The notes under the pieces were generated by a model that was given only the letters and a program-made list of their open reading frames with translations, did no database searches and was not told the origin of the DNA. From Thainema sp. (lineage in GTDB: Bacteria; Cyanobacteriota; Cyanobacteriia; Phormidesmidales; Phormidesmidaceae): a stretch of 16,987 nucleotides of DNA. The translations under genes and the position numbers were made by a program. Within the stretch, counting starts at the first letter, position 1. The number at the start of each line of letters is the position of its first letter. Positions 127 through 16,987 of the stretch are shown here, piece by piece. The stretch spans positions 1-16,987 of the forward strand of contig JBQLZK010000102.1 in NCBI GenBank assembly GCA_052168235.1, written 5' to 3'.

Positions 127-312
127 TTAGTTGTGCAGCAAACTCTTTGAGGTACTGGGCTGCTGTCGGCGTTCTTGCAAAGTCTTATCAATTAATTTTG
201 CCACCAGCCAGGAGACAGACCGTTCATCTGTCTGTGCCCATTCCTCTAGTTCTTTTTTACGCTCAGCAGGAATGTAAGCAACCACTCGCTCTAAATCTGT
301 TTTACCGCCCAT
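127..312 (-). CDS. Ribbon-helix-helix (CopG/Arc-like) DNA-binding protein, 61 aa
   Basis: MGGKTDLERVVAYIPAERKKELEEWAQTDERSVSWLVAKLIDKTLQER has the beta-strand, helix, RS(V)S helix pattern of cyanobacterial RHH proteins. ATG at 312 preferred over 384. Confidence 0.8.
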   Translation of the reverse strand: MGGKTDLERVVAYIPAERKKELEEWAQTDERSVSWLVAKLIDKTLQERRQQPSTSKSLLHN

Positions 313-433: not shown

Positions 434-1243
434 TTGCTTTCAATCACCGGAAATTTTGTACAACCCCCCATTAGTTCAGGGCTAGTCTTGCTTTCGGCTA
501 GAGAATTAGACAAGATGCGGCGGGTTGGGCAGCTGGCGGCGAATCTCCTCAATCATCTTGAGCCAATGGTGCAGCCTGGCGTGAGTACGCAAGCTTTAAA
601 CGATGAGGCGGCGCGTTGGATGCAAGCTCATGGTGCAATCAGCGCCACCCTTGGCTACGCACCTCCTGGCCATCCCCCTTTCACAGGGTCAATTTGCACC
701 AGCATTAATGAAGTGGTTTGTCACGGAATCCCGAACCCAAAGCAAATCCTCAAAGACGGGGATATTATCAATATCGATGTGACCCTGAGGTTGGCAGGCT
801 ACCACGGCGACACATCGAGAACATTTCTAGTGGGTCCGGTATCCGCAACCGCCCGAAAATTAGTTGAAGCGACTCACGAATCGATGATGCGGGGAATTGC
901 TGAAATCAAGCCTGGGGCAAGAATTGGTGATATTGGCGCGGCAATTCAAGCCTATGCCGAGGCAAGTGGATTCTCCGTTGTTCGAGATATGGTTGGGCAT
1001 GGCATTGGCAGGCAGATGCATACAGAGCTGCAAATTCCTCACTATGGCAAACGAGGCAGCGGGTTGAAGCTGCGTCCAGGTATGATTTTTACGGTTGAAC
1101 CGATGCTAAACGAAGGGACTTATGAGCTTAAATTTCTCGCGGATGGTTGGACTGTGATTACGAAGGATAAGAAACTCTCTGCTCAGTTTGAACATACCGT
1201 TGCTGTAACTGAGGAAGGGGTAGAGATTTTAACGCTTGCCTAA
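434..1243 (+). CDS. map: Type I methionine aminopeptidase
   Basis: SICTSINEVVCHGIP, and all five metal ligands present: INIDV, GDTSRT, GHGIG, TVEPM, AQFEHT. Start (TTG 434) uncertain. Confidence 0.95.
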   Translation: MLSITGNFVQPPISSGLVLLSARELDKMRRVGQLAANLLNHLEPMVQPGVSTQALNDEAARWMQAHGAISATLGYAPPGHPPFTGSICTSINEVVCHGIPNPKQILKDGDIINIDVTLRLAGYHGDTSRTFLVGPVSATARKLVEATHESMMRGIAEIKPGARIGDIGAAIQAYAEASGFSVVRDMVGHGIGRQMHTELQIPHYGKRGSGLKLRPGMIFTVEPMLNEGTYELKFLADGWTVITKDKKLSAQFEHTVAVTEEGVEILTLA

Positions 1244-1524: not shown

Positions 1525-1586
1525 TAAGAATCTGACAAACTCTCCTAAGAATTTGAAAGAAACCGAGATTCAGAACTCACTACACT
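1525..1586 (+). promoter_or_regulatory. AraC-associated tandem site plus -10 box, copy 1
   Basis: TAAGAATCTGA (1525) and TAAGAATTTGAAAGA (1546), period 21; TACACT at 1581; RBS AGGAG before ATG 1637. Confidence 0.7.
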
Positions 1587-1636
1587 TCGGTTAAATCAGA
1601 CGAGCATTCAATGCGGTATTTATTAGGAGATGGACA

Positions 1637-2473
1637 ATGCCTTATGTAACGGTCGGTCAAGAAAATTCTGCAGCCATTGATCTCTACTACGAAGATCTGG
1701 GGGCGGGTCAACCCATTGTTCTTATTCATGGATTTCCCCTTAACGGCCATTCCTGGGAAAAGCAGGTTTTGGTGCTGCTAAATGCCGGGTATCGAGTGAT
1801 TACCTACGATCGCCGAGGATTTGGTGCGTCTAGCCAACCCTCGTTGGGCTATGACTACGATACTTTTGCCGCCGACTTGAACACGATAATGACCAAACTT
1901 GACTTGCAGGATGCGGTGCTGGTTGGCTTCTCTATGGGAACGGGTGAGGTCACGCGCTATCTCGGCAAATATGGCTCAGAGCGGGTACAAAAAGCGGTGC
2001 TGATGGCTCCCGTACCGCCCTTCTTACTGAAGACTGATGATAATCCTGAAGGGGTTGAGCAAAGTGTTTTCGATGGCATTATGAACGCGATCGTGAAAGA
2101 TCGCCCCGCCTACTTTTCTGACTTTTTCAGAGAATTCTTCAATGTGGATGTGCTGCTGGGCGAACGCATCAGCAACTATGCCATTCAAGCCAACTGGAAT
2201 GTGGCAGCCGGAGCTTCTGCTAAGGGGACTTTGGATTGTGTGCCGTCCTGGCTCACCGATTTCCGTGACGATCTGCCGCGCATCGATGTCCCCACCCTGA
2301 TCATTCATGGCGATGCCGATCGCATTTTGCCGCTTGAGTCCACCGCCGCCAGACTGCCAAAGCTGATTAAAAACAGCCAGCTTGAAATCATTCCTGGGGG
2401 GCCACACGCCATTAACTGGACTCACGCTGATCAGGTCAATCCCCTATTGCTCAACTTTCTTCAGCAGGAATAA
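1637..2473 (+). CDS. bpoA2: Non-heme (cofactor-free) haloperoxidase/perhydrolase, alpha/beta hydrolase
   Basis: N-terminus PYVTVGQENSAAIDLYYEDLGAGQPIVLIHGFPL closely resembles Streptomyces BPO-A2. Triad motifs GFSMG, HGDADRILP, GPHA. Confidence 0.88.
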   Translation: MPYVTVGQENSAAIDLYYEDLGAGQPIVLIHGFPLNGHSWEKQVLVLLNAGYRVITYDRRGFGASSQPSLGYDYDTFAADLNTIMTKLDLQDAVLVGFSMGTGEVTRYLGKYGSERVQKAVLMAPVPPFLLKTDDNPEGVEQSVFDGIMNAIVKDRPAYFSDFFREFFNVDVLLGERISNYAIQANWNVAAGASAKGTLDCVPSWLTDFRDDLPRIDVPTLIIHGDADRILPLESTAARLPKLIKNSQLEIIPGGPHAINWTHADQVNPLLLNFLQQE

Positions 2474-2604
2474 TTGGTGACTCATTACATTTCTGACTTG
2501 TGGGAAAACTCTGTGATTCATCTATTGAATCAAGCTCACGCTAATCCAGATGGAGTATTGCAAATCAAAAGTTGAGTTATGAGGGCAAAGATGTTGGATG
2601 TGCG

Positions 2605-2702
2605 TTAGGAGATCTCTGGCAAAGAGTTTCTCACTCGTAGGGTGTCATTAGCGAAGCTTAATGCACCACTGCCCGATATTTTTGTTCCTGGAGATCTCCT
2701 TA
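2605..2702. repeat. MITE-like miniature element with a GTAG REP-like hairpin
   Basis: TTA (2605-2607, 2700-2702) flanks GGAGATCTC...GAGATCTCC; internal GTAGGGTGTCATTAGCGAAGCTTAATGCACC (2637-2667). Confidence 0.6.
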
Positions 2703-2831
2703 GCGAAGCTTACCGAAGGTACTACATCTTTACTTTCACAAGACAACCGTTGGGTAAATGCTCAGAGAATTGCAGTCTCTAGCGGCATCTTTCTTTAATT
2801 CACACTGACTAAAACAAAAGGAAAACTCACC

Positions 2832-3566
2832 ATGTTGAATGTAGAAAACAAAGTAATTGTTATTACTGGAGCCAGCAGCGGCATTGGCGAAGCCACCGCG
2901 AAACTGCTCGCCCAAAATGGCGCAAAAGTCGTTTTGGGAGCGCGACGCACAGACAAGCTAGAGAAGCTAGTTAAAGAAATTCATGCATCTGGTGGGACAG
3001 CAGAATGCAAAGCGGTTGATGTCACCGATCGCGAAAATGTGAAAGCATTTGTTGAGTTTGCCAACGACAAATTCGATCGCGTCGATGTCATCTTTAACAA
3101 TGCAGGCGTGATGCCCCTATCGCCGATGAATGCCCTGAAAGTCGAGGAATGGGACAACATGATTAATGTGAATATTCGGGGCGTGTTGAATGGGATTGCG
3201 GCGGGGCTGCCAATTATGGAAGCGCAAGGAGGTGGGCAAATCATCAATACCGCCTCCATTGGTGCCCATGTAGTTGTTCCGACGGGGGCCGTCTATTGCG
3301 CCACAAAATATGCGGTTTGGGCAATTTCTGAAGGACTGCGCCAGGAATCACAAAACATTCGCGTCACCACCATCTCTCCGGGTGTCGTTGCCACCGAACT
3401 GGGCTCTGATATTACAGACGAGTCGGCGAAAGGTGCTTTGCAGGAATTTCGCAAAATTTCGCTCAGCCCAGATGCGATCGCGAGAGCGGTGCTGTACGCC
3501 GTATCCCAACCCGATGATGTTGACGTGAATGAAATCATAGTCCGACCGACGGCCAGTGCGTTCTGA
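2832..3566 (+). CDS. Classical short-chain dehydrogenase/reductase (YdfG-like)
   Basis: [13 protein letters not shown]...YCATK, ISPG, EIIVRP; RBS AAGGA. Confidence 0.93.
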   Translation: MLNVENKVIVITGASSGIGEATAKLLAQNGAKVVLGARRTDKLEKLVKEIHASGGTAECKAVDVTDRENVKAFVEFANDKFDRVDVIFNNAGVMPLSPMNALKVEEWDNMINVNIRGVLNGIAAGLPIMEAQGGGQIINTASIGAHVVVPTGAVYCATKYAVWAISEGLRQESQNIRVTTISPGVVATELGSDITDESAKGALQEFRKISLSPDAIARAVLYAVSQPDDVDVNEIIVRPTASAF

Positions 3567-3621
3567 AGGGAATCGGTCAAAGCATAGGAGCGTTATCACC
3601 AACACAAAGGACATTGTCATA

Positions 3622-4110
3622 ATGAAACCATTTCATTTTTTAGCTGCTATGGCGCTTATTCTCACGGTAGGCTGTAACGCTGTCGGACAAACTTCTGTTC
3701 CCCATGAAACACCAGCACCAAGTAACAAGACCGTTGTCGAGGCGAGTTTTCAGCAATGGCAAGATGGTACCGGCTCTCCTTTCGAGCTTTTATCAGAGGA
3801 TATGCGCTGGACGATTAGTGGCTTTAATACATATGCCGGCACTTACACACGCGAGCCTTTTGAAGAAGAGCTGATTGCGCCTTTTAATGAGCGCGTAGAG
3901 GAGCCTTTAAGGCCAACACAGTGGCAAGTTTATGAAGATGGTGACGTTGTTGTTATTCATTTTGATGCTGAAACAACCTTGATTAATGGAGAACAGTACA
4001 GGAACAGCTATGCCTGGTTTTTCACTTTCGAGGATGAAGAAGTGACTGAAGTTACCGCATTCTTGGACATGCCAGCTTTTGAAAAAGTTTTGGAAATAGA
4101 AGTTAGGTAA
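3622..4110 (+). CDS. SnoaL/NTF2-like (ketosteroid isomerase-like) protein, predicted lipoprotein
   Basis: Signal MKPFHFLAAMALILTVG-C; LSEDMRWTISG...AGTY, DGDVVVIHF, YRNSYAWFFTF...VTAFLD typical of SnoaL_2-like proteins. Confidence 0.8.
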   Translation: MKPFHFLAAMALILTVGCNAVGQTSVPHETPAPSNKTVVEASFQQWQDGTGSPFELLSEDMRWTISGFNTYAGTYTREPFEEELIAPFNERVEEPLRPTQWQVYEDGDVVVIHFDAETTLINGEQYRNSYAWFFTFEDEEVTEVTAFLDMPAFEKVLEIEVR

Positions 4111-4373
4111 CCAATGAATTAAATTGTGGAATTATATCTGATGAGTTAATGGAAACTGTGTATCTCACGGACAGTTACGTCCAGCTTTCCTCGCGCTTTA
4201 ATTGCGGCAGGAATTCTCAAAGAGCTGTTCCAGGAAAACGACGTTAGTTTTCCAGTAGCATCGCCGAATTAAATACTTTTAAATGTGGTCATATCCCTCT
4301 TCTGTGTAGGGCAATCGCATTTTTATCCAACTAGCACTTTGAAGAGGTACTCATCGTCCTAACGCACTAGACT

Positions 4374-4399
4374 CGCAGGGCTTCCTGGGAAGCCCTGCG
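4374..4399. terminator. Strong GC hairpin, possible terminator or stability element
   Basis: CGCAGGGCTTCC-tg-GGAAGCCCTGCG; no clean U-tract follows. Confidence 0.4.
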
Positions 4400-4594
4400 G
4401 GTGCCACAAGTTTTGGCTCATCGCTGTGCCTATCTAACCCAGATTATTCATGAGAAGCGTTAATGGCTAGCTTGTATACTTAGTGCGTCAGTGATTGTCT
4501 TGGTTTCCCAACTGGTAGACGCTTTTGCTGCGCCAGAGTAAGGCTGAGAGGTGTTGTTTTGCAAATGCAAAAGATATCGGTGGAGAGAAATTCT

Positions 4595-5482
4595 ATGGCT
4601 AGCAACCAGCTCAACTCGCTCAAACTCTGCCAACGGTTCAATAAACCACTGATGCTCTCCAGTCGTCAAATGAACTGGAATGGCATTTTGGTTGAGCAGT
4701 GTCAAAGTCCTGCTTCAACCTATGAGGTAGAACTCCCAGCCCTCTCAGACCACTGGCTCAGCCTACACCTAGGAAATTCCACTTCTTTAATTCAGAAACG
4801 GGGCGATCGCCTGCATGAATCGACCCTGCGTGAAGGGGACAATCTCTTTATTCCGGCTGGGCAGCCAAGCTTCTGGTGTCAACATAAAAGTGGTATCCCC
4901 TGCTCTCCACTATTCATTTTTTTCAAGCCAGAACTGATTCAGCAGGTGGCTGAAGCCTCGGATATGGATGCAAATCGGTTCGAGTTTAGGCATTGTTTTG
5001 GCCAGCAAGATTCGCAACTTCATCAGATTGGCACGCTGATGTTGGCTGAGTTGCGGTCGGGCGGGATGATGGGGCAATTGTATGTCGAATCACTCACTCA
5101 AGTTCTGGTCATTCATTTACTCCGAAACTTTTCGACCCTAATAAAACCGATCGCATCACCCCACAGCCGCTTTACTCATAGCCAGTTGCAGCAGGCGATT
5201 GATTACATTCACACTTATTTGAATCGAGATTTATCCCTGGCAGAACTGGCAAGTGTAGTGAACATCAGCCCAACTTACTTTGCAAGTTTGTTTAAGCAAG
5301 AAATGGGAATTTCGCCCCACCAATACGTGATTCAACAGCGGGTAGAACGGGCAAAAGTGATGCTGATGAAAACGGATTTAGCGATTGCAGACATCGCTCT
5401 ACAAGTCGGTTTCTCTAGCCAAAGCCATCTAACACAACAGTTTAAGCGATTCACGGGACTGACTCCAAAACAGGTGCGCTAA
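4595..5482 (+). CDS. AraC family transcriptional regulator (AraC-1)
   Basis: C-terminal double HTH (LSLAELASVVNISPTYFASLFKQEMG...IALQVGFSSQSHLTQQFKR...TPKQVR); ATG 4595 preceded by GGAGAG. Confidence 0.95.
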   Translation: MASNQLNSLKLCQRFNKPLMLSSRQMNWNGILVEQCQSPASTYEVELPALSDHWLSLHLGNSTSLIQKRGDRLHESTLREGDNLFIPAGQPSFWCQHKSGIPCSPLFIFFKPELIQQVAEASDMDANRFEFRHCFGQQDSQLHQIGTLMLAELRSGGMMGQLYVESLTQVLVIHLLRNFSTLIKPIASPHSRFTHSQLQQAIDYIHTYLNRDLSLAELASVVNISPTYFASLFKQEMGISPHQYVIQQRVERAKVMLMKTDLAIADIALQVGFSSQSHLTQQFKRFTGLTPKQVR

Positions 5483-5487
5483 CACCT

Positions 5488-5549
5488 TAAGAATTTTATA
5501 AACCGCCATAAGAATCTGAAAGAAATCAAGCATTGAACCTCAGTACACT
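5488..5549 (+). promoter_or_regulatory. AraC-associated tandem site plus -10 box, copy 2
   Basis: TAAGAATTTTA (5488), TAAGAATCTGAAAGA (5509), TACACT (5544). Confidence 0.7.
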
Positions 5550-5680
5550 TCAGATATCACAATGCGGTTAACTCTCCTTTCAAACGACTGCACGAATATT
5601 GATTGAGTCCTTTGACCTAGCTTAACTGCGACTGAAATGAGCGATCGCACATGAAAACTTTTCAACACAGAGGAATGAAT

Positions 5681-6133
5681 ATGAAGACTTGGATTTCGAT
5701 GCTGCTAATTTTAGCAAGTGTGAGCTTGTTCGGGTGCGACGATCAACGAGCGAAAGAACAATTGGATAGCACAATGGACAGTTGGATTGGTCGGGATATC
5801 GATGAGTTTGTTCGCAGATATGGTACACCCACGGCAACGCTTACGTTACCCAATGGAAACACAATCTATTCCTACAGAACGGATCGAGAACGCGAGTTTA
5901 ATCAGCCAACCACTGTGAATGAGTTTGAGAACGATCAGGGCGATACAACTACGATAATTAGCGGAGGCAACACGGTTGTTGATCGTGATTTCTGTGAGAT
6001 TGATGTCGAGTTCGATCGCTCTGGAGAAATTCAGTCTTGGCGCTATGAGGGTAGTTCTCCAAGACATTGCGACATTAAGAGCCTGCCGAAAACGCTCCAG
6101 AAGCAATTACAAAAAGACGGCATTCTTCCGTAG
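5681..6133 (+). CDS. Hypothetical lipoprotein, possibly SmpA/OmlA-like fold
   Basis: Signal [35 protein letters not shown]...YSY and [29 protein letters not shown] before ATG 5681. Confidence 0.75.
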
Positions 6134-6135
6134 GT

Positions 6136-6237
6136 CAAAACAAAGTTATTGCGATTACTGGAGCCAGTAGCGGTATTGGTGAAGCAACTACTAGATTGCT
6201 GGCTCGTCAGGGCTTACAGGTTTTGTTAGGGGCGCGA
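6136..6237 (+). pseudogene. SDR N-terminal remnant (34 codons, no start)
   Basis: [34 protein letters not shown] aligns with [34 protein letters not shown] of the SDR at 2832. Confidence 0.85.
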
Positions 6238-6239
6238 TT

Positions 6240-6257
6240 CCCAAACAGATTCGTTAG
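6240..6257 (+). pseudogene. Last 5 codons and stop of a third, deleted araC (PKQIR*)
   Basis: CCCAAACAGATTCGTTAG vs AraC-2 end CCGAAACAGATTCGCTAG; gapless homology continues to 6350/8525. Confidence 0.8.
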
Positions 6258-6262
6258 CCCCA

Positions 6263-6323
6263 GAAGAATCTAATCACTAACCGTAAGCATCTGAAAGAAG
6301 TTGAGTGTTGAAACTCATACACT
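6263..6323 (+). promoter_or_regulatory. AraC-associated tandem site plus -10 box, copy 3
   Basis: GAAGAATCTAA (6263), TAAGCATCTGAAAGA (6284), TACACT (6318). Confidence 0.65.
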
Positions 6324-6354
6324 CAAGTGAGCTAAGACAAAAATAATCTGTCCA

Positions 6355-6416
6355 GAAAGCCCCTGTCATAGTCAGCAGTAGTACCCTCACCCCTGCCGAC
6401 TATGACGGGGGCTTTC
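6355..6416. repeat. Long 24-bp inverted repeat (22/24) with 14-nt loop
   Basis: GAAAGCCCCTGTCATAGTCAGCAG ... CTGCCGACTATGACGGGGGCTTTC. Confidence 0.75.
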
Positions 6417-6438
6417 ATATGTCATGCCCTTATCGGTC

Positions 6439-6470
6439 GTTCCAGAGCCGAATAGTTCCAGAGCCGAATA
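6439..6470. repeat. Exact 16-bp tandem duplication
   Basis: GTTCCAGAGCCGAATA x2. Confidence 0.85.
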
Positions 6471-6513
6471 GCTATTTGCCGAAATAAGACGTGCGAGTTG
6501 GTAAAGCAACCTC

Positions 6514-6557
6514 TTGTCACTAAGTGACATTTAGCGCTATTGTGTCACTTAGTGACA
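6514..6557 (+). promoter_or_regulatory. Paired TetR-type operators overlapping a putative tetR promoter
   Basis: TGTCACTAAGTGACA (6515-6529) and TGTCACTTAGTGACA (6543-6557); TTGTCA-N18-TATTGT. Confidence 0.75.
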
Positions 6558-6601
6558 GACTTTGAAAGAAGACTGTCGTGGGGAGTGACGGTGCCAGCGG
6601 T

Positions 6602-7249
6602 ATGACGAAGAACAAGCGTAAAACAGGGAGGATGAGTGAGCAGCGACAGCAGCGGATACGTCTAGAGATTTCGCGGGAGGCGGCGCGTTTGTTTTGGGAG
6701 CAAGGCGTCGCTGCCACGACCGGCGAGCAAATCGCAGAAGCGGTAGGTCTCTCAGTGCGCACCCTCTGGCGGTACTTCCGCAACAAGGAGAGCTGTGTAG
6801 AGCCGGTCTTGGCGCAGGATGGCGAGGAGTTTGTGGCGCTATTGCGCCGCTGGCCTCGGGATGTCTCCCTTGAAGATCACCTCATGGAGTGGGCGATGAA
6901 TCGTACTAAAGATCCCGATCAGCAGTCCTTTGATCAGGCTGTCATCAAGATGACTGTGCTGGCCGAAAAAGAGCCGGATCTGCGGACGGTCTGGCTGATG
7001 ACCAACGACCGAATAGAGCGCGCTCTGGTCGAGATCTTCGCAGATCGCCTGCGGCGATCGCCTGACGATATCGAGGTGCGACTGCACGCCGCAGCGGCTA
7101 CCGCAGTCGTGCGCGTTATCAGTGAAGACATCAGTGCGGCCCTGATGGCAGGAGCCGATCCCACCTCGCTTGGCAACACGCTTGGGCAGATGGCCCGCGC
7201 CGTGCATACAGCGACTGGTGGGGCAGTCGGCGATCCTGTCGATCCTTAA
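6602..7249 (+). CDS. TetR/AcrR family regulator (MftR-like C-terminus possible)
   Basis: ISREAARLFWEQGVAATTGEQIAEAVGLSVRTLWRYFRNKE is a TetR_N HTH. Start could be 6578, 6602 or 6632. GC-rich. Confidence 0.92.
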   Translation: MTKNKRKTGRMSEQRQQRIRLEISREAARLFWEQGVAATTGEQIAEAVGLSVRTLWRYFRNKESCVEPVLAQDGEEFVALLRRWPRDVSLEDHLMEWAMNRTKDPDQQSFDQAVIKMTVLAEKEPDLRTVWLMTNDRIERALVEIFADRLRRSPDDIEVRLHAAAATAVVRVISEDISAALMAGADPTSLGNTLGQMARAVHTATGGAVGDPVDP

Positions 7250-7297
7250 ACCCATTGACAATTGAAATCAGCAATAAGAGCCAAGGAGTTGATCCTC

Positions 7298-7552
7298 ATG
7301 TCTAATCTTTCTTCTAACTATTCGCGGGAGTCAGGAAAAAATACCGCTGGGTTATCTACTCAGCCCGTACGTCATCAGTTCACCCGTCTGAGCTGGCCCG
7401 AGGGCATTGTGAGCCTTATCGTCCCTAACATAATCGGGTACGGAGTCGGATTGCCGCTCTCGCGACTCGGACTCGATCCCGTGGTCTATCGGCACTTAAT
7501 ATCCCTGGAGTCCTACGTAAAAGCAATCGGTGAGAGCAAACTTCATGACTAG
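7298..7552 (+). pseudogene. Truncated membrane protein N-terminus, likely a CPBP-family remnant
   Basis: RBS AAGGAG and ATG 7298. RLSWPEGIVSLIVPNIIGYGVGLPLSRLGLDPVVY resembles N-termini of TetR-linked CPBP proteases (recalled, not searched), then runs into the araC-2 leader. Confidence 0.45.
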
Positions 7553-8432
7553 CAATCGGCTTAACTCGCTTGAACTCAGTCAGCAGTTTAATAAAACGCT
7601 GATGTTCTCCAGTCAGCAAATGAACTGGAATGGCGTTTTCGTTGAGCAGTGCCAAAGCCCTATTTCAGCGTTTGAGGTGGAACTCTCAGCCCTCTCAGAC
7701 CATTGGCTGAACTTACACATCGGAAATCCTGCCCCTTTAATTCAGAAACGGGACGATCGCCTGCATGAATCAATCCTTCATGAAGGGGACAATCTTTTTG
7801 TCCCGGCTGGACAACCGAGCTATTGGTGTCGAGATGAGAGTGGTGTTATCTGTACTCCGCTGCACATTTGCCTAAAGCCAGAATTGGTTCAACACGTTGC
7901 TGAAGCGTCTGACATTGATTCCACACGGTTCGAGCTTGTGCATGGTTTCGGTCAGCAGGATGTGCAACTGCATCAGATTGGTATGCTGATGCTCGCTGAG
8001 TTGAGATCGGGCGGGATGATGGGGCAACTCTATATCGAATCACTCACTCAAGCCCTAGTGATTCATCTACTCCGACACTATTCGACCCTAACGCAATCGA
8101 TCGCATCACCCTACAGTAGCTTTACTCGTAACCAGTTACAGCAGGCGATTGATTACATTCACACTTACTTGAATCGAGATTTATCCTTGGCAGAACTGGC
8201 GAGTGTTGTAAATATCAGCCCAACTTACTTTGCCAGTTTGTTTAAGCAAGAAATGGGAATTTCGCCCCATCAATACGTGATTCAACAGCGCGTAGAACGG
8301 GCAAAAGTGATGCTGATGAAAACGGATTTAGCGATCGCAGACATCGCTCTACAAGTCGGTTTCTCTAGCCAAAGCCATTTAACCCAACAGTTTAAGCGCC
8401 ACACTGGCATGACACCGAAACAGATTCGCTAG
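7545..8432 (+). CDS. AraC family transcriptional regulator (AraC-2), paralog of AraC-1
   Basis: Colinear with AraC-1; 89 consecutive HTH-domain residues identical; ATG 7545 aligns with ATG 4595. Confidence 0.95.
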   Translation: MTSNRLNSLELSQQFNKTLMFSSQQMNWNGVFVEQCQSPISAFEVELSALSDHWLNLHIGNPAPLIQKRDDRLHESILHEGDNLFVPAGQPSYWCRDESGVICTPLHICLKPELVQHVAEASDIDSTRFELVHGFGQQDVQLHQIGMLMLAELRSGGMMGQLYIESLTQALVIHLLRHYSTLTQSIASPYSSFTRNQLQQAIDYIHTYLNRDLSLAELASVVNISPTYFASLFKQEMGISPHQYVIQQRVERAKVMLMKTDLAIADIALQVGFSSQSHLTQQFKRHTGMTPKQIR

Positions 8433-8437
8433 CTCCA

Positions 8438-8498
8438 TAGGAATCTAATAAATCACCGTAAGAATCTGAAAGAAGTTGAGTGTTAAAACTCACATACT
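8438..8498 (+). promoter_or_regulatory. AraC-associated tandem site plus -10-like box, copy 4
   Basis: TAGGAATCTAA (8438), TAAGAATCTGAAAGA (8459), CATACT (8493). Confidence 0.65.
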
Positions 8499-8684
8499 CA
8501 AGTTAGCTAAGACAAAAACAATCTGCACCAAAAGTACATAAACCCAGCCCAAAAATTCCGTTGATAGTGGCCGTCGATCCTCGGATCGTGGTTCGACTAA
8601 GGGCAAACGCATGTTCAACGATGCCGGATCTGGTGCCACCAGATCTATCGAAGTCATCGTTAAATCCTGAAACTATCGACAACT

Positions 8685-9692
8685 GTGATCAGTAACCCGA
8701 CCCAAGTACTACATAACTTACCCATGAAGGAAACAAATTTGGAGATGCAAAACACCGAAAGAACGCGGAGAATCATCACAGAAGCCAAAAAAGTGACCTA
8801 CCTAGAGGCTGCCCGGTGGGGTAAGTATCGGGGGTGGCGGTATGTTCTGGGGCTGATGATCATCCTCTTTGCGTGGCTGGTCATTGGTAGTGGGGCCAGC
8901 GTACTCGTTGCGTTTGCCCTCGGCGGCCAGGCAGACCCCTCGGGGCTGGGGCCTGTGGAATACTACCTGTTTGTCATAGCAAGTTTCCTGTGCTTTTTCG
9001 CGGGAGTGCTGATCGCTGTCTCCTTCGTCCACCGCCGCCCCCCCCAAACGCTTGTCACGGCGCGGAAGCAGATCAACTGGCAGCGGGTCGGTCATGGATT
9101 TGTGGCGTGGTTTGTGCCGTACTGCCTGATCGGTGGGCTGGGGCAGTACCTCTTCTACCCGGATACTTTCTCCTTTAACTCCGGCCTCTTAACGTTCGCA
9201 CTCTTCGTTCCGATCGCGCTGGTTCTCACCGCTGTCCAAACGACCACCGAGGAGCTGTTCTTTCGCGGATACGTTGTGCAGGGGGCGAGCCTCATCTGGA
9301 GCAATCGTGTTTTTCTGGCGATCGCGTCAGCCGTGATCTTTACCCTGCCGCACCTCCTTAACCCGGAAGCGCGGACGGGCGGCTGGCTCACGATCTTTTC
9401 CAACTATTTCTTCGTTCCGGGTCTGGTGTGGACTGTGGTCTCGTTGATTGACGGCACTACCGAACTCGCCATCGGCGTACACTTCGCGAACAACATCGGT
9501 GGGGTACTCCTGTTCAACATCACTGGAACAGCCTTGCCCTCACCCGCTCTGTTCACCATCAGCGAGTATCACGCGACCTACGGGGCGCTATCAGCGTTGG
9601 TTACAGTCCCCGTGTTTCTGGCGATCGCCTACGGAGTATTTAAGCGTCAGACCCCAACCCATTTTCCAGAGCCACGGCAAGATCGTGGGTGA
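8685..9692 (+). CDS. CPBP (CAAX/Rce1-like, Abi) intramembrane glutamic endopeptidase
   Basis: EELFFRG, FTLPH, AIGVHFANN motifs; multiple hydrophobic segments. Start may be 8724 or 8745. Confidence 0.92.
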   Translation: MISNPTQVLHNLPMKETNLEMQNTERTRRIITEAKKVTYLEAARWGKYRGWRYVLGLMIILFAWLVIGSGASVLVAFALGGQADPSGLGPVEYYLFVIASFLCFFAGVLIAVSFVHRRPPQTLVTARKQINWQRVGHGFVAWFVPYCLIGGLGQYLFYPDTFSFNSGLLTFALFVPIALVLTAVQTTTEELFFRGYVVQGASLIWSNRVFLAIASAVIFTLPHLLNPEARTGGWLTIFSNYFFVPGLVWTVVSLIDGTTELAIGVHFANNIGGVLLFNITGTALPSPALFTISEYHATYGALSALVTVPVFLAIAYGVFKRQTPTHFPEPRQDRG

Positions 9693-9796
9693 TCTCGCCG
9701 ACCTCGATCTGCCCGACGAAGGGGCGACCTGCACCCTATAACCACAAGAACGCGAAGGCTTGAAAACAATTCTGAAATGAAGTTGAGGATAGCATC

Positions 9797-10537
9797 ATGG
9801 TTGAGCATAAAAACTCTAGGCTGCGACTGTTTGGGCTGCTGTGGTTGGCCGGCATGGCTGGGGTGATGTCCCTGGTGTTGCTGCCGTTGCCCGTGCTCCC
9901 AGAGGGTGCCCCCCCTGCCGCTGTGGTCAGACTACTGATGCTGGTGCAGCCCGCGGTTTTGGTGTCGGTAGCGGTGCTGATAGGCGTGCTCTTGACTCAC
10001 CGGCTAGGGCTAATGGCACCGGGGGCAGAGGCGCTGGCCACTGGGCGATCGTGGCGGCAAGCCATCGTGCCTCAACTGTTACCCGGCGTGGTGGGTGGGT
10101 TGATCAGCGGCGGACTACTGACGGCGATCGCCCTGCTGTCTCGCCCGCTGCTGCCACCAGCCTATGGGGCGGCTGAGCCCACGCCGCTGCTAGTGCGATT
10201 TCTCTACGGCGGTATCACCGAAGAAATTCTCATCCGCTGGGGACTGATGACGCTGCTGCTATGGCTGGGCTGGCGATTTGGACAGCAGCGCCAGGGTAAA
10301 CCCCAGGCCCGATGGGTGGTCGTCGCCATTGCTGTCTCCTCCCTGGTGTTTGCGATGGCCCACTTGCCCTATGCAATCGCCCTAGGGCTGCCGTTAACCC
10401 CAGCCCTCGTGGGATTCTTGCTGATCCAAAATTCTTTATTTGCCGGGGTTGCAGGGTATTTGTTCTGGCGCTACGGGCTAGAGACTGCCGTGATCGCCCA
10501 CCTGATAGTTCATGCCGTGCTGGCCCTCATCAGCTGA
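9797..10537 (+). CDS. CPBP (CAAX/Rce1-like, Abi) intramembrane endopeptidase, second subfamily
   Basis: LYGGITEEILIRWG, FAMAH, IAHLIVH; RBS GAGGA. Confidence 0.92.
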   Translation: MVEHKNSRLRLFGLLWLAGMAGVMSLVLLPLPVLPEGAPPAAVVRLLMLVQPAVLVSVAVLIGVLLTHRLGLMAPGAEALATGRSWRQAIVPQLLPGVVGGLISGGLLTAIALLSRPLLPPAYGAAEPTPLLVRFLYGGITEEILIRWGLMTLLLWLGWRFGQQRQGKPQARWVVVAIAVSSLVFAMAHLPYAIALGLPLTPALVGFLLIQNSLFAGVAGYLFWRYGLETAVIAHLIVHAVLALIS

Positions 10538-10713
10538 GGTATCTCCTGGCTACCGGGCAGGGTGGACACGGGTGTCGTAGCCCAGGCACGCTGCCGGATG
10601 GGCTGGACGGCAAAGCGTTCACCCTCATGTCTCAAATTTCTTCTAACAGCTCACGAAATCGTGACCGACTCACGTACGACTCAAGACCAACAGCTTCCAT
10701 TAGGAGGAGAATT

Positions 10714-12456
10714 ATGCGCGTTCCCAAGACCTACGTCAGGCGCTTATTAACAGGCACAGCGGTGATGTTGCTTGTCCTCGCTGGGGCACCTGCCGCATTG
10801 ACACAATCAGAAGCGATCGCGACTGCTGCGGTTGCCACCGCCGACAAAGCGGTCACGCACGCCGAGAACAACCGCGTTCCCCAAGGCGCGGCCTGGACGC
10901 AGCACTATTTTCCGTCCTCAGACGGCTCCGAAGTTGAACTGCACGCCGACGTTCTGTTGCCCGAAGGACTGGCCGCAGGCGAGCAGGTGCCGGTAATCCT
11001 GTCGGTCGGAGCGTACTTCGGGCACTCCGGCCAACAGGCACTGGAAAACCACGCGCACACCGGCCCCTCGAACCGCTTCAACGACCTGATCGAAGGCACT
11101 GATCTCTTCAACCGCGGCTACGCCCTGGTGATGGTCGATCTGCGCGGCTTCGGCGGCTCCACCGGATGTCTAGACTTCATGGGTCCCGGTGAGCAGGCCG
11201 ACGTGCAGGCCGCGATCGACTGGGCCGCGAGCCAGCCCTGGTCTACGGGTGCCGTCGGCATGTATGGCAAGTCCTATGATGCCATCACCGGGTTAGTTGG
11301 TAACAACCTCGACCAGGACGCGCTCAAAGCCGTCGTCGCCCAGGAGCCGATCTGGGATCTGCACCGCAGCGCCTGGTCGAACGGCGTCCCCCGCTCGACC
11401 ATCGTGGATGTGTCGCGCACCTATAACGAGATTGCTATCTTGCCGCAGCTGCCCGACGATGACGAGCGCTACCGGACCAATGCCGCCTACGAGCAGATAA
11501 ACCCGCTGTGCCTGCCGGTGAACTCGCTCGGCTACCAGGACGCTGACCCAGGCTCTGAGTTCTGGCAGTTCCGTAACTTAGCAGAGCGCGCCAAGGGCAC
11601 CGACACGCCGCTATTGTTCACGCAGGGTTTCCTTGAGTGGAAGGCCGAGGCCGAGGCGGTGGAGGAGTTCCTCGCCAACCACCGGGGACCGCAGCGCGGC
11701 TGGCTCGGCCCTTGGGAGCATTACCGGGGTAATGATCGTACTGCCGATGGGCAACTGGAAATGGGCCGCGAGGGCTGGTTCGACGAGGTGATGTCCTTCT
11801 ACGACCAGCACCTCAAGGGCATCGAACCGACCGTGGACTACCCAGCCTACGTCGTGCAGGACAGTACCGGCACCTGGCGCGCCCAGGACACCTGGCCGGT
11901 TGTGGAGTACGCCGCCACCCTCGCGCTCAACGGCGGGTCGTATCTAGACGACGGCCTGCTTGCCGACCCCGCAGCCAAGGCTCCCAACCGCTTCTTCGTC
12001 TGGTCTGAGCCACTTGGGCAGTCGGTTCGGATCACTGGTACGCCGCAGGTGTCTCTGAATACCGAGGGCCACGGCAATGTCATGGTCGAGCTGTACGACG
12101 TCGCCCCAGACGGCAGCGCCGTTGCGTTCAACCGGCAGGTGGCGGTGGTGAAACCCGGCACGACCAGCTTCGACCTCAGATCGACGGACTGGACGCTGCA
12201 AGCTGGTCACGCATTGGCCGTTGAGATTGGCACCATTCAGCCCTCTCTGGCCCCCGACAACGACTGGATTGATACACCGTCGCTTGAAAGAATCACCGTC
12301 AGCGACACCCGGCTCGAGCTTGCCCTGGACGACCCAGCCAACGACACTGTCATCCCTGGCGATCGCGCGCCGTGGCTGGACATCTACCGGCAGGCGTACA
12401 CGGAGCAGTTGTCTCCCAATACCCCAAGCTTCACGCTGCCGACGCAAGACCGCTGA
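10714..12456 (+). CDS. Secreted CocE/NonD family hydrolase (peptidase S15 / X-Pro dipeptidyl-peptidase-like)
   Basis: RBS AGGAGGAG and ATG 10714; signal peptide; RGYALVMVDLRGFGGSTG, QPWSTGAVGMYGKSYD, GPWEH; PepX_C-like C-terminus. Confidence 0.9.
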   Translation: MRVPKTYVRRLLTGTAVMLLVLAGAPAALTQSEAIATAAVATADKAVTHAENNRVPQGAAWTQHYFPSSDGSEVELHADVLLPEGLAAGEQVPVILSVGAYFGHSGQQALENHAHTGPSNRFNDLIEGTDLFNRGYALVMVDLRGFGGSTGCLDFMGPGEQADVQAAIDWAASQPWSTGAVGMYGKSYDAITGLVGNNLDQDALKAVVAQEPIWDLHRSAWSNGVPRSTIVDVSRTYNEIAILPQLPDDDERYRTNAAYEQINPLCLPVNSLGYQDADPGSEFWQFRNLAERAKGTDTPLLFTQGFLEWKAEAEAVEEFLANHRGPQRGWLGPWEHYRGNDRTADGQLEMGREGWFDEVMSFYDQHLKGIEPTVDYPAYVVQDSTGTWRAQDTWPVVEYAATLALNGGSYLDDGLLADPAAKAPNRFFVWSEPLGQSVRITGTPQVSLNTEGHGNVMVELYDVAPDGSAVAFNRQVAVVKPGTTSFDLRSTDWTLQAGHALAVEIGTIQPSLAPDNDWIDTPSLERITVSDTRLELALDDPANDTVIPGDRAPWLDIYRQAYTEQLSPNTPSFTLPTQDR

Positions 12457-16931: not shown

Positions 16932-16987
16932 CTAACCTGAATAATTCACGAAAGGTAAAAGAGGGATAGAAAAAAGAGCCTGAAACG

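Follow-up and report, generated by a model that had tools for sequence, protein, structure and literature searches.

Why does a single cyanobacterial contig carry four closely similar stretches of non-coding DNA, two of them directly behind the stop codon of an AraC/XylS-type regulator gene, and what may these stretches do there? The contig comes from Thainema sp. (GenBank assembly GCA_052168235.1, contig JBQLZK010000102.1), and the window analyzed here is the complete 16,987-bp contig, C102, of a genome (G000) of 7.54 Mb in 205 contigs. An earlier note on this DNA had described each stretch as a tandem pair of sites followed by a -10-like box, and had proposed that the regulator gene carries its own target promoter on its tail, as a portable cassette that switches on whatever lies downstream. 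Our results point, with a probability that we put at about three in four on the sequence evidence, to these four elements and a fifth one elsewhere in the genome being copies of one activator-dependent promoter of a cyanobacterial AraC/XylS subfamily, located past the stop codon of the regulator and provided with dedicated cargo. Overall, the system has the appearance of a cyanobacterial regulon that is conventional though not yet described, and not that of a free-moving promoter cassette.

The composite element and its conservation

All four pairs of sites lie where the earlier note had placed them, with 16-mers starting exactly 21 bp apart (Table 1), and the second-site consensus that it gave, TAAG(A/C)AT(C/T)TGAAAGAA, fits the four copies without a single mismatch. 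When up to two mismatches were allowed, five matches to this consensus were obtained in the window, as compared to a shuffle mean of 0.04 and with none of 200 shuffles reaching five; the fifth match (172-187, minus strand) looks like a chance one. The -10-like boxes were recovered as well, as TACACT at +35 in copies 1 and 2, TACACT at +34 in copy 3 and CATACT at +34 in copy 4. Likewise, CAATGCGGT is common to copies 1 and 2 (at 1609 and 5560), yet its offsets from site 2 differ (+63 and +51). The claim that site 1 begins at the sixth nucleotide past an araC stop held for copies 2 and 4 (stops at 5482 and 8432) but not for copy 3, as the stop at 6257 ends no araC gene. An independent repeat search grouped the four copies into an 82-nt family (D2; 1498-1579, 5461-5542, 6236-6317 and 8411-8492), which takes in the last ~27 nt before site 1. 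Moreover, the 34-nt composite GAATYTNAYNANNNNNNNTAAGNATYTGAAAGAA has exactly five matches in the whole genome, whether 0, 1 or 2 mismatches are allowed: the four in the window and one on contig C121, located 5 nt past the stop of a third araC paralog.

Each 16-mer is preceded by five conserved bases (caccR) and, since these stand before both 16-mers, the predicted operator is made up of two tandem 21-bp units, roughly caccRTAAGAATCTGAnAAAt, the first of which begins at the first base past the stop codon. Over 38 non-redundant instances, the information content is high across both sites, remains at about 1 bit over the spacer GAGCATTGGAACTCA and the -10-like TAcAcT (positions 40-61, which lay outside the search pattern), and drops to background past approximately +68. 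The TAcAcT box sits 19-20 nt past site 2, and the promoter-proximal unit ends at the position where a -35 element would lie, with no -35 consensus being present. The 21-bp spacing is kept in the five genome copies and in 158 pattern matches from other genomes and this one (the pattern itself fixes the spacing), and one variant with a 32-bp spacing was observed. As the earlier note had suggested, the repeat thus appears to have the anatomy of an AraC/XylS operator adjoining a promoter, namely a pair of direct repeats with a 21-bp period, followed by a -10-like box. In the araC tail that precedes the element synonymous positions vary, and the tail is therefore conserved as coding sequence and not as a DNA signal. 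A third operator unit inside this tail was considered and rejected, as by eye the tail does not fit the site consensus and its synonymous positions vary.

Similarity of this kind could also be passive, a mere by-product of araC 3' ends having been duplicated recently along with flanking DNA, and devoid of regulatory function; indeed, a stretch of 129 nt is 83% identical between copies 3 and 4 (repeat family D3), and the products of araC1 and araC2, the two regulator genes of the window, are paralogs with 80% overall identity. Such a relic is, nevertheless, very improbable: the 16-bp sites are nearly invariant whereas the adjoining synonymous araC-tail positions and the sequence past +68 vary, orphan copies retain the sites once araC is gone, and the motif is found in 44 genomes of many families. 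We also considered whether the element could act in RNA, as a 3' untranslated region, terminator or leader structure in araC read-through transcripts, in favor of which short inverted repeats span the -10 region (e.g., TTGAGTGT and ACACTCAA in copy 3). However, single-sequence folding of the four copies gave z-scores from -1.8 to +0.6 and no supported structure, and RNAalifold detected no consensus structure in 36 instances (mean z of -0.27), the candidate pairs being without covariation. In addition, the promoter/terminator scan showed no terminator-like site 3' of either araC gene in the window and Rfam returned no match for the element, which leaves a function in RNA as something that we hardly credit.

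The AraC regulators

Identity between the AraC1 and AraC2 proteins reaches 94% in the C-terminal 105 aa and 73% in the N-terminal part, while the C121 paralog shows 74% identity with AraC1 and 80% with AraC2. Taking the three together, the last 105 residues are 88-94% identical and the preceding part 67-78%, so that the N-terminal sensor domains have diverged. A C-terminal double helix-turn-helix (HTH) domain is present in both window proteins (Pfam HTH_18, 2.7e-25 and 5.5e-26, and HTH_AraC in two stretches), and sequence matches in the PDB are to the DNA-binding domains of AraC, MarA, SoxS and Rob. For AraC2, an AlphaFold model built on a 14-row alignment (predicted local distance difference test score of 80.8) shows an N-terminal beta-barrel of nine strands, helical linkers and the DNA-binding domain; its Foldseek matches include full-length CsvR, ToxT, Rns and CuxR, as well as the AraC dimerisation domain (2arc, 1xja). 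In Pfam, the N-terminal cupin is represented by a weak Cupin_6 match only (E of 0.009-0.075). Judging from the model, the window regulators are thus predicted to possess the N-terminal effector-binding/dimerisation domain of AraC/XylS activators. At the level of NCBIfam, no specific equivalog was found for the regulator, every match being below the cut-off.

The putative recognition helices, placed by analogy with MarA and XylS (for XylS, after an excerpt of PMC5481539), are identical in the three paralogs and different in more distant paralogs of the same genome. Because of this identity, all five promoters would probably be served by any of the three. In addition to these long forms, there is an AraC family reduced to the HTH part, of about 118 aa, with a conserved N-terminus (MLTITTPT...) and often with a stop codon just before the start. 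Short forms of this type exist in many cyanobacteria, some of which are without the long form, and were observed at loci L034 (G006), L038, L039, L040, L066, L074, L075, L077-L082 and L089; behind some of them comes the motif, and others have a CPBP gene immediately behind them. The genome of the window has long forms only.

Distribution and association with the AraC subfamily

The composite pattern was scanned against 401 cyanobacterial genomes, with the reversed pattern as a control. The 158 matches are distributed over 44 of the 401 genomes and many families, while the reversed control gave two; up to 16 copies per genome were counted, often clustered on one strand of one contig. When the same genomes were searched with AraC2 as the query (E up to 1e-60), homologs at least 60% identical were detected in 31 genomes, and 29 of these contain the motif. 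The remaining two carry a variant directly past the stop, namely an 11-nt internal duplication in site 1 (G208) and a degenerate copy (G082). Conversely, 15 motif genomes have no long form: ten have a gene for a short HTH-only protein whose DNA-binding domain is 72-86% identical, one has a pseudogene, and four have nothing above 54%. In total, the motif co-occurs with the AraC subfamily, in long or short form, in 39 of the 44 motif genomes. At the level of individual genes, and among the matches listed, a cross-match of coordinates by hand indicated that the composite starts 3-6 nt past the stop in at least ~39 of 52 subfamily genes; the exceptions include one at 17 nt, one about 25 nt further and two variants. 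The co-occurrence across the 401 genomes therefore bears out, beyond the window, the link between the motif and this AraC subfamily. Moreover, 5 of 25 distant AraC paralogs (45-60% identical in the HTH) carry a significant 20-21-bp direct repeat at or just past their own stop, related to the repeat described here yet diverged (e.g., TAAGAATGTG...), from which we conclude that the layout is old in the clade and not peculiar to this island.

These distributions also bear on whether the element could be the operator of a different factor, such as the TetR protein of the island, with the adjacency to araC being merely historical. A TetR gene does belong to the island in G000, G020, G023, G026 and [Synechococcus] sp. 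NIES-970, and the spacer holds a weak dyad, TGAG-N8-CTCA. However, direct repeats of 21-bp period are unlike the palindromes typical of TetR, the TetR gene of the window has palindromes of its own at 6514-6560, the motif accompanies the AraC subfamily in the large majority of motif genomes given above, and diverged paralogs carry diverged repeats; we consider this alternative improbable.

What precedes the motif, and the decay of modules

For the flanks of the motif, 57 distinct instances were compiled from island loci of relatives, from one best locus per motif genome and from the loci of the short-form search, close orthologs included. Upstream of the motif lies a full-length araC in 18 of the 57, a partial araC in 4 (two cut by the locus end, one truncated gene in G023 and one pseudogene in G040), a short form in 5 and an araC 3' remnant of 39-217 nt in 12; the others are taken up further below. 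Downstream, an open reading frame (ORF) on the same strand starts within 450 nt in 53 of the 57 instances, the remaining four having too little flank.

The earlier note had stated that copy 1 has no adjacent araC, and this is the case; tblastn and local alignments of the tail stayed within the shuffle range when an araC remnant was sought upstream of it. With no araC adjoining it, copy 1 would depend on a regulator acting in trans. In G361, G191 and G228 the orthologous hydrolase promoter stands behind a full araC, and in G006 behind a 118-aa short form. Copy 3 has a different origin: 6133-6240 represents the first ~34 codons of a short-chain dehydrogenase/reductase (SDR) gene (adh_short positions 1-34; 72% identical to 2845-2955, repeat family D4), BLAST detected no araC homology upstream of the copy, and the ~20-nt araC tail shows up in repeat family D2. 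On these sequence relations, copy 3 is best described as a deletion scar and not as an araC-linked copy. At the start of araC2, homology to the upstream regions of other araC genes stops ~30 nt before the ATG, and the fragment at 7298-7552 is 72% identical to the 5' part of a CPBP gene in G040; at the same place, G023 has a longer CPBP gene that is split into two reading frames. Taken together, the fusion of SDR and araC tail at copy 3 and the CPBP piece before araC2 show that the array carries deletion scars.

Related genomes display the array at other stages. In G020, G023 and G064, araC and its motif are followed by a gene for a 253-aa SDR and by what is left of another araC (191 nt long in G020 and G064, 54 nt in G023), behind which lie a second motif and the lipoprotein gene, the latter being the same gene that copy 2 precedes in the window. 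G026 begins in the same way and has a remnant of 191 nt, but here the second motif stands before a TetR gene. Since araC1 falls with full support inside the clade associated with this SDR, yet has the lipoprotein gene next to it, one module has gone missing from G000, and recombination between the repeated araC-tail/operator blocks is the simplest route to this loss. Altogether, what distinguishes the genomes resembles the outcome of duplication, of decay in redundant araC copies and of deletions running from one repeated block to another.

Cargo and mobility of the island

Eighteen full-length AraC proteins were placed in a tree and labeled by the first downstream gene (17 labeled, in six groups, one having no ORF in its flank). 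On this tree the cargo labels need five changes, which is the minimum, and none of 200 label shuffles was as low, in a test that is inflated by near-copies. The araC2 clade is paired with CPBP (the same first cargo in 6 of 6 loci with enough flank), other clades with alpha/beta hydrolase, RidA or the 253-aa SDR, and the most distant pair with a SnoaL-like protein; the sole exception is araC1 of the window with its lipoprotein gene, explained by the loss of the SDR cassette described above. The statement of the earlier note that the element switches on whatever lies downstream is thus not supported, as cargo tracks the AraC clade; regulator, promoter and cargo were rather inherited together as paralogous operons.

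These results also guided our evaluation of the portable cassette, in which an araC 3' end with its operator-promoter would move as a unit and capture arbitrary genes, the block serving as a recombination substrate. Part of this proposal stands. Remnants of araC precede 12 of the 57 copies and ~20-nt stubs precede others, copy 3 included; the breakpoints between the islands of G000, G020, G023 and G026 coincide with blocks made up of araC tail and operator; and G000 lacks the cassette of the 253-aa SDR that G020, G023, G026 and G064 hold between two such blocks. Moreover, AraC2 orthologs with 94-98% identity occur in six other genomes of several genera and families, while the nearest AraC2 homolog in G001, a genome of the same genus, is only 39% identical (E of 1.3e-51). 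The island is also found on a plasmid, the 65.8-kb plasmid2 of [Synechococcus] sp. NIES-970, with the order map, motif, oxidoreductase, epimerase, araC, motif, tetR, and on to a beta-lactamase-family gene. What does not stand is the capture of arbitrary genes: cargo is clade-specific, the events seen are losses and not captures, and the junction at copy 3 is an illegitimate deletion inside an SDR gene and not a precise cassette boundary. In addition, Pfam detected no integrase or site-specific recombinase family in the window, and the blocks have neither a recombinase nor a transposase linked to them. An integron-like organization, with a recombinase and inverted-repeat sites at the cassette ends, is not seen either, as the repeats are direct and without conserved pairing. 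On balance, we regard a portable cassette as unlikely.

Across the loci, the first genes past the motif encode alpha/beta hydrolases, SDRs, SnoaL-like proteins, RidA and CPBP proteins, and further a methyltransferase, an Atu4866-like protein, an intradiol dioxygenase, a flavodoxin-fold reductase and a metallo-beta-lactamase (MBL)-fold protein. As judged by family assignment, this profile points to small-molecule detoxification or modification, and the combination of small-molecule-transforming and envelope proteins suggests a xenobiotic or natural-product defense response. Downstream of the fifth copy, on the reverse strand of C121, lie genes for a RidA-family protein and then for a protein with an STFK motif, a motif typical of class D beta-lactamase or transpeptidase folds.

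Proposed function and points that weigh against it

In the activator-dependent promoter that we propose, two regulator subunits would bind the direct repeats and recruit RNA polymerase, as is the case for AraC at I1-I2 and for XylS at Pm. The cupin-type N-terminal domain, loaded with a small molecule, may join the subunits, and transcription would start ~7 nt past the -10 box and run into the downstream genes. The ancestral unit would have consisted of araC, its own operator-promoter directly past the stop, and dedicated cargo. The window would then represent a decaying head-to-tail array of such units, with araC1/copy 2 and araC2/copy 4 intact, copy 3 keeping a 20-nt araC stub and copy 1 none. 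Among the sequencing runs matched to the window, shares did not exceed 0.21; four RNA-library runs yielded contigs of relatives, 90-99% alike, which are uninformative on starts, ends and expression, and the RNA libraries of those runs also contain very long contigs.

Several observations weigh against this proposal. A consensus promoter scan made no call at any of the four copies in the window, which is to be expected for an activator-dependent promoter but does not count in its favor. In loci L059 (G180) and L060 (G260), site 2 ends up only 10 nt before the RidA start codon, without room for a -10 box, and not every copy of the motif can therefore be a working promoter; the spacer and -10 box have been deleted there, and these copies are probably dead or re-purposed ones. 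Genomes G089, G109, G210 and G312 bear the motif and have no regulator with at least 60% HTH identity, and at most ~11 of the 52 subfamily genes have no motif past the stop among the matches listed. In 18 of the 57 flanked instances, BLAST showed no araC homology upstream; several of these display a tail-like stretch of up to 30 nt by eye. In addition, many of the genomes counted are kin, so the counts overstate independence. Finally, a near-perfect hairpin with a 19-bp stem (6355-6416; -43.6 kcal/mol, z of -9.2) lies ~25 nt past the predicted start of copy 3 and may stop its transcripts, or alternatively might stabilize them; it seems to be a small palindromic insertion, as related type-A leaders in other genomes are without it.

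A broader scenario, which we consider possible but doubtful, is that of a horizontally mobile xenobiotic-defense regulon, spread over cyanobacteria and made of self-contained modules, in each of which the sensor-activator gene would end at the very point where its operator starts. Paralogous sensors with different ligand domains, and the MarA-sized short forms of other genomes, would read one operator as a many-inputs relay with a single promoter type, and the blocks of araC tail and operator would offer the homology for cargo gain and loss. Under such a scenario the relay chain would be P1, araC1, P2, P3, tetR-araC2 and P4.

Comparison with known systems

In E. coli AraC regulation, I2 overlaps the -35 element by 4 bp, and the araC-araBAD arrangement is divergent. 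The activator-dependent promoter proposed here resembles araI1-I2 (pBAD) and the XylS-dependent Pm promoter in its two-domain regulator, with a cupin-type sensor/dimerisation domain and a double HTH, and in its two direct repeats of 21-bp period, the proximal of which would reach the -35 position, followed by a -10-like box without a -35. It differs in that the operator sequence is unrelated, in that the operator lies directly past the regulator's own stop and points away from it, and in that several paralogous regulators appear to share one operator. According to an excerpt of PMC5481539, Pm contains two 15-bp direct repeats, with one monomer contacting each of them by its helices 3 and 6.

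Paralogous activators that seem to share one box, as suggested here by the identical putative recognition helices, recall MarA, SoxS and Rob of E. coli. In that system one asymmetric box is bound by a monomer, and the sensor domain of Rob is C-terminal, whereas two tandem sites and an N-terminal cupin sensor are found here. Further similarities are the HTH-only forms (118 aa) of related genomes, which have the size of MarA and SoxS, and the detoxification-type cargo, with a flavodoxin-fold reductase, SDRs, hydrolases and an MBL-fold protein. Among cyanobacteria, PchR/PcrR-like AraC genes stand beside siderophore receptor genes, and repeated AraC-receptor units in Anabaena are tabulated in an excerpt of PMC3610870; these regulators are distant (35-60% identity), their box sequence differs, and their cargo is for iron uptake in contrast to the hydrolases, SDRs and CPBP proteins found here. 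In the main texts of the literature searched, the operator string occurs in no paper, and searches on cyanobacterial AraC regulons yielded nothing on the motif or the subfamily; in excerpts of the cyanobacterial AraC literature, mentions are confined to siderophore-linked AraC genes or All1651.

Mechanistically, this would be an ordinary AraC/XylS design. The motif nevertheless provides a precise candidate operator for an uncharacterized AraC subfamily found in approximately one tenth of the sampled cyanobacterial genomes, together with a candidate regulon of hydrolases, reductases, SnoaL-like, RidA and CPBP proteins, whose inducer could shed light on the sensing of foreign or self-made small molecules in cyanobacteria. 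As the promoter is compact (~62 bp) and the regulator is encoded beside it, one could try the pair for inducible gene expression in cyanobacteria.

Gene content of the window and additional observations

Pfam assignments give the plus-strand order methionine aminopeptidase, alpha/beta hydrolase, SDR, SnoaL-like protein, araC1, lipoprotein-like ORF, TetR, araC2, two CPBP genes and S15 hydrolase (Table 1), the last of which also matches CocE_NonD in NCBIfam (1.5e-99). For both araC genes an ATG is the probable start codon (4595 and 7545), instead of the TTG and GTG of the ORF list.

Table 1. Coordinates of the proposed composite promoters, genes and gene fragments in the window.
Feature	Position	Strand	Basis
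Methionine aminopeptidase	434-1243	+	Pfam
Promoter copy 1 (orphan): site 1 1525-1540, site 2 1546-1561, TACACT 1581-1586, predicted start near 1593	1525-1586	+	
Alpha/beta hydrolase, cargo of copy 1	1637-2473	+	Pfam Abhydrolase_1 2.5e-42
SDR, cargo of copy 1	2832-3566	+	Pfam adh_short 8.4e-56
SnoaL-like protein with lipoprotein-type signal, cargo of copy 1	3622-4110	+	Pfam SnoaL_2 2.8e-07
araC1, long-form AraC/XylS regulator, ~295 aa from ATG 4595	4595-5482	+	Pfam HTH_18, HTH_AraC
Promoter copy 2: site 1 5488-5503, site 2 5509-5524, TACACT 5544-5549	5488-5549	+	
160-aa protein with lipoprotein-type signal (LFGC), cargo of copy 2	5651-6133	+	no Pfam family match
Deletion scar: SDR N-terminal fragment to ~6240 plus ~20 nt of araC 3' end, stop 6255-6257	6133-6257	+	Pfam, repeat families
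Promoter copy 3: site 1 6263-6278, site 2 6284-6299, TACACT 6318-6323	6263-6323	+	
TetR-family gene, downstream of copy 3	6578-7249	+	Pfam TetR_N
CPBP-family N-terminal fragment adjoining the araC2 start	about 7262/7298-7552	+	identity to G040 CPBP, repeat family D8
araC2, long-form AraC/XylS regulator, 295 aa, cupin-type N-terminal domain	7545-8432	+	Pfam, AlphaFold model, Foldseek
Promoter copy 4: site 1 8438-8453, site 2 8459-8474, CATACT 8493-8498	8438-8498	+	
CPBP, cargo of copy 4 (block 8685-12456)	about 8724-9692	+	Pfam Rce1-like
CPBP, cargo of copy 4	9797-10537	+	Pfam Rce1-like
CocE/NonD (S15) hydrolase, cargo of copy 4	10714-12456	+	Pfam Peptidase_S15

The methionine aminopeptidase is one of four homologs encoded in the genome and is 88% identical to the product of C1:9385-10188; its gene also opens the syntenic island on plasmid2 of NIES-970. 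As a matter of speculation, this extra enzyme could be a duplicated drug target that provides resistance. Words of ~54-55 nt at the two contig ends recur on other contigs (those of 1-60 on at least eight, those of 16933-16987 on two), and fragments of IS66-like and HTH_Tnp_4 transposases, by Pfam, are confined to 15.9-16.9 kb of the window. From these two features we infer that repeats lie on either side of the island and interrupted the assembly. A GC-rich element of ~22 nt at 1448-1470 recurs on contigs C33, C115, C11 and C132, and is the point at which many metatranscriptome contigs stop.

Upstream of the TetR gene, the near-identical palindromes TGTCACTAAGTGACA and TGTCACTTAGTGACA, at about 6514-6560, overlap a promoter-like match (6514-6543) and probably represent the TetR operator; as araC2 lies downstream of the TetR gene, it may also be TetR-controlled. 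In the ~220-nt leader between copy 4 and the first CPBP gene, the first ~45 nt are conserved among type-A promoters, and a 19-codon ORF (MFNDAGSGATRSIEVIVKS) is located at 8590-8649. Finally, a 16-nt unit (GTTCCAGAGCCGAATA) is perfectly duplicated in tandem at 6439-6470.

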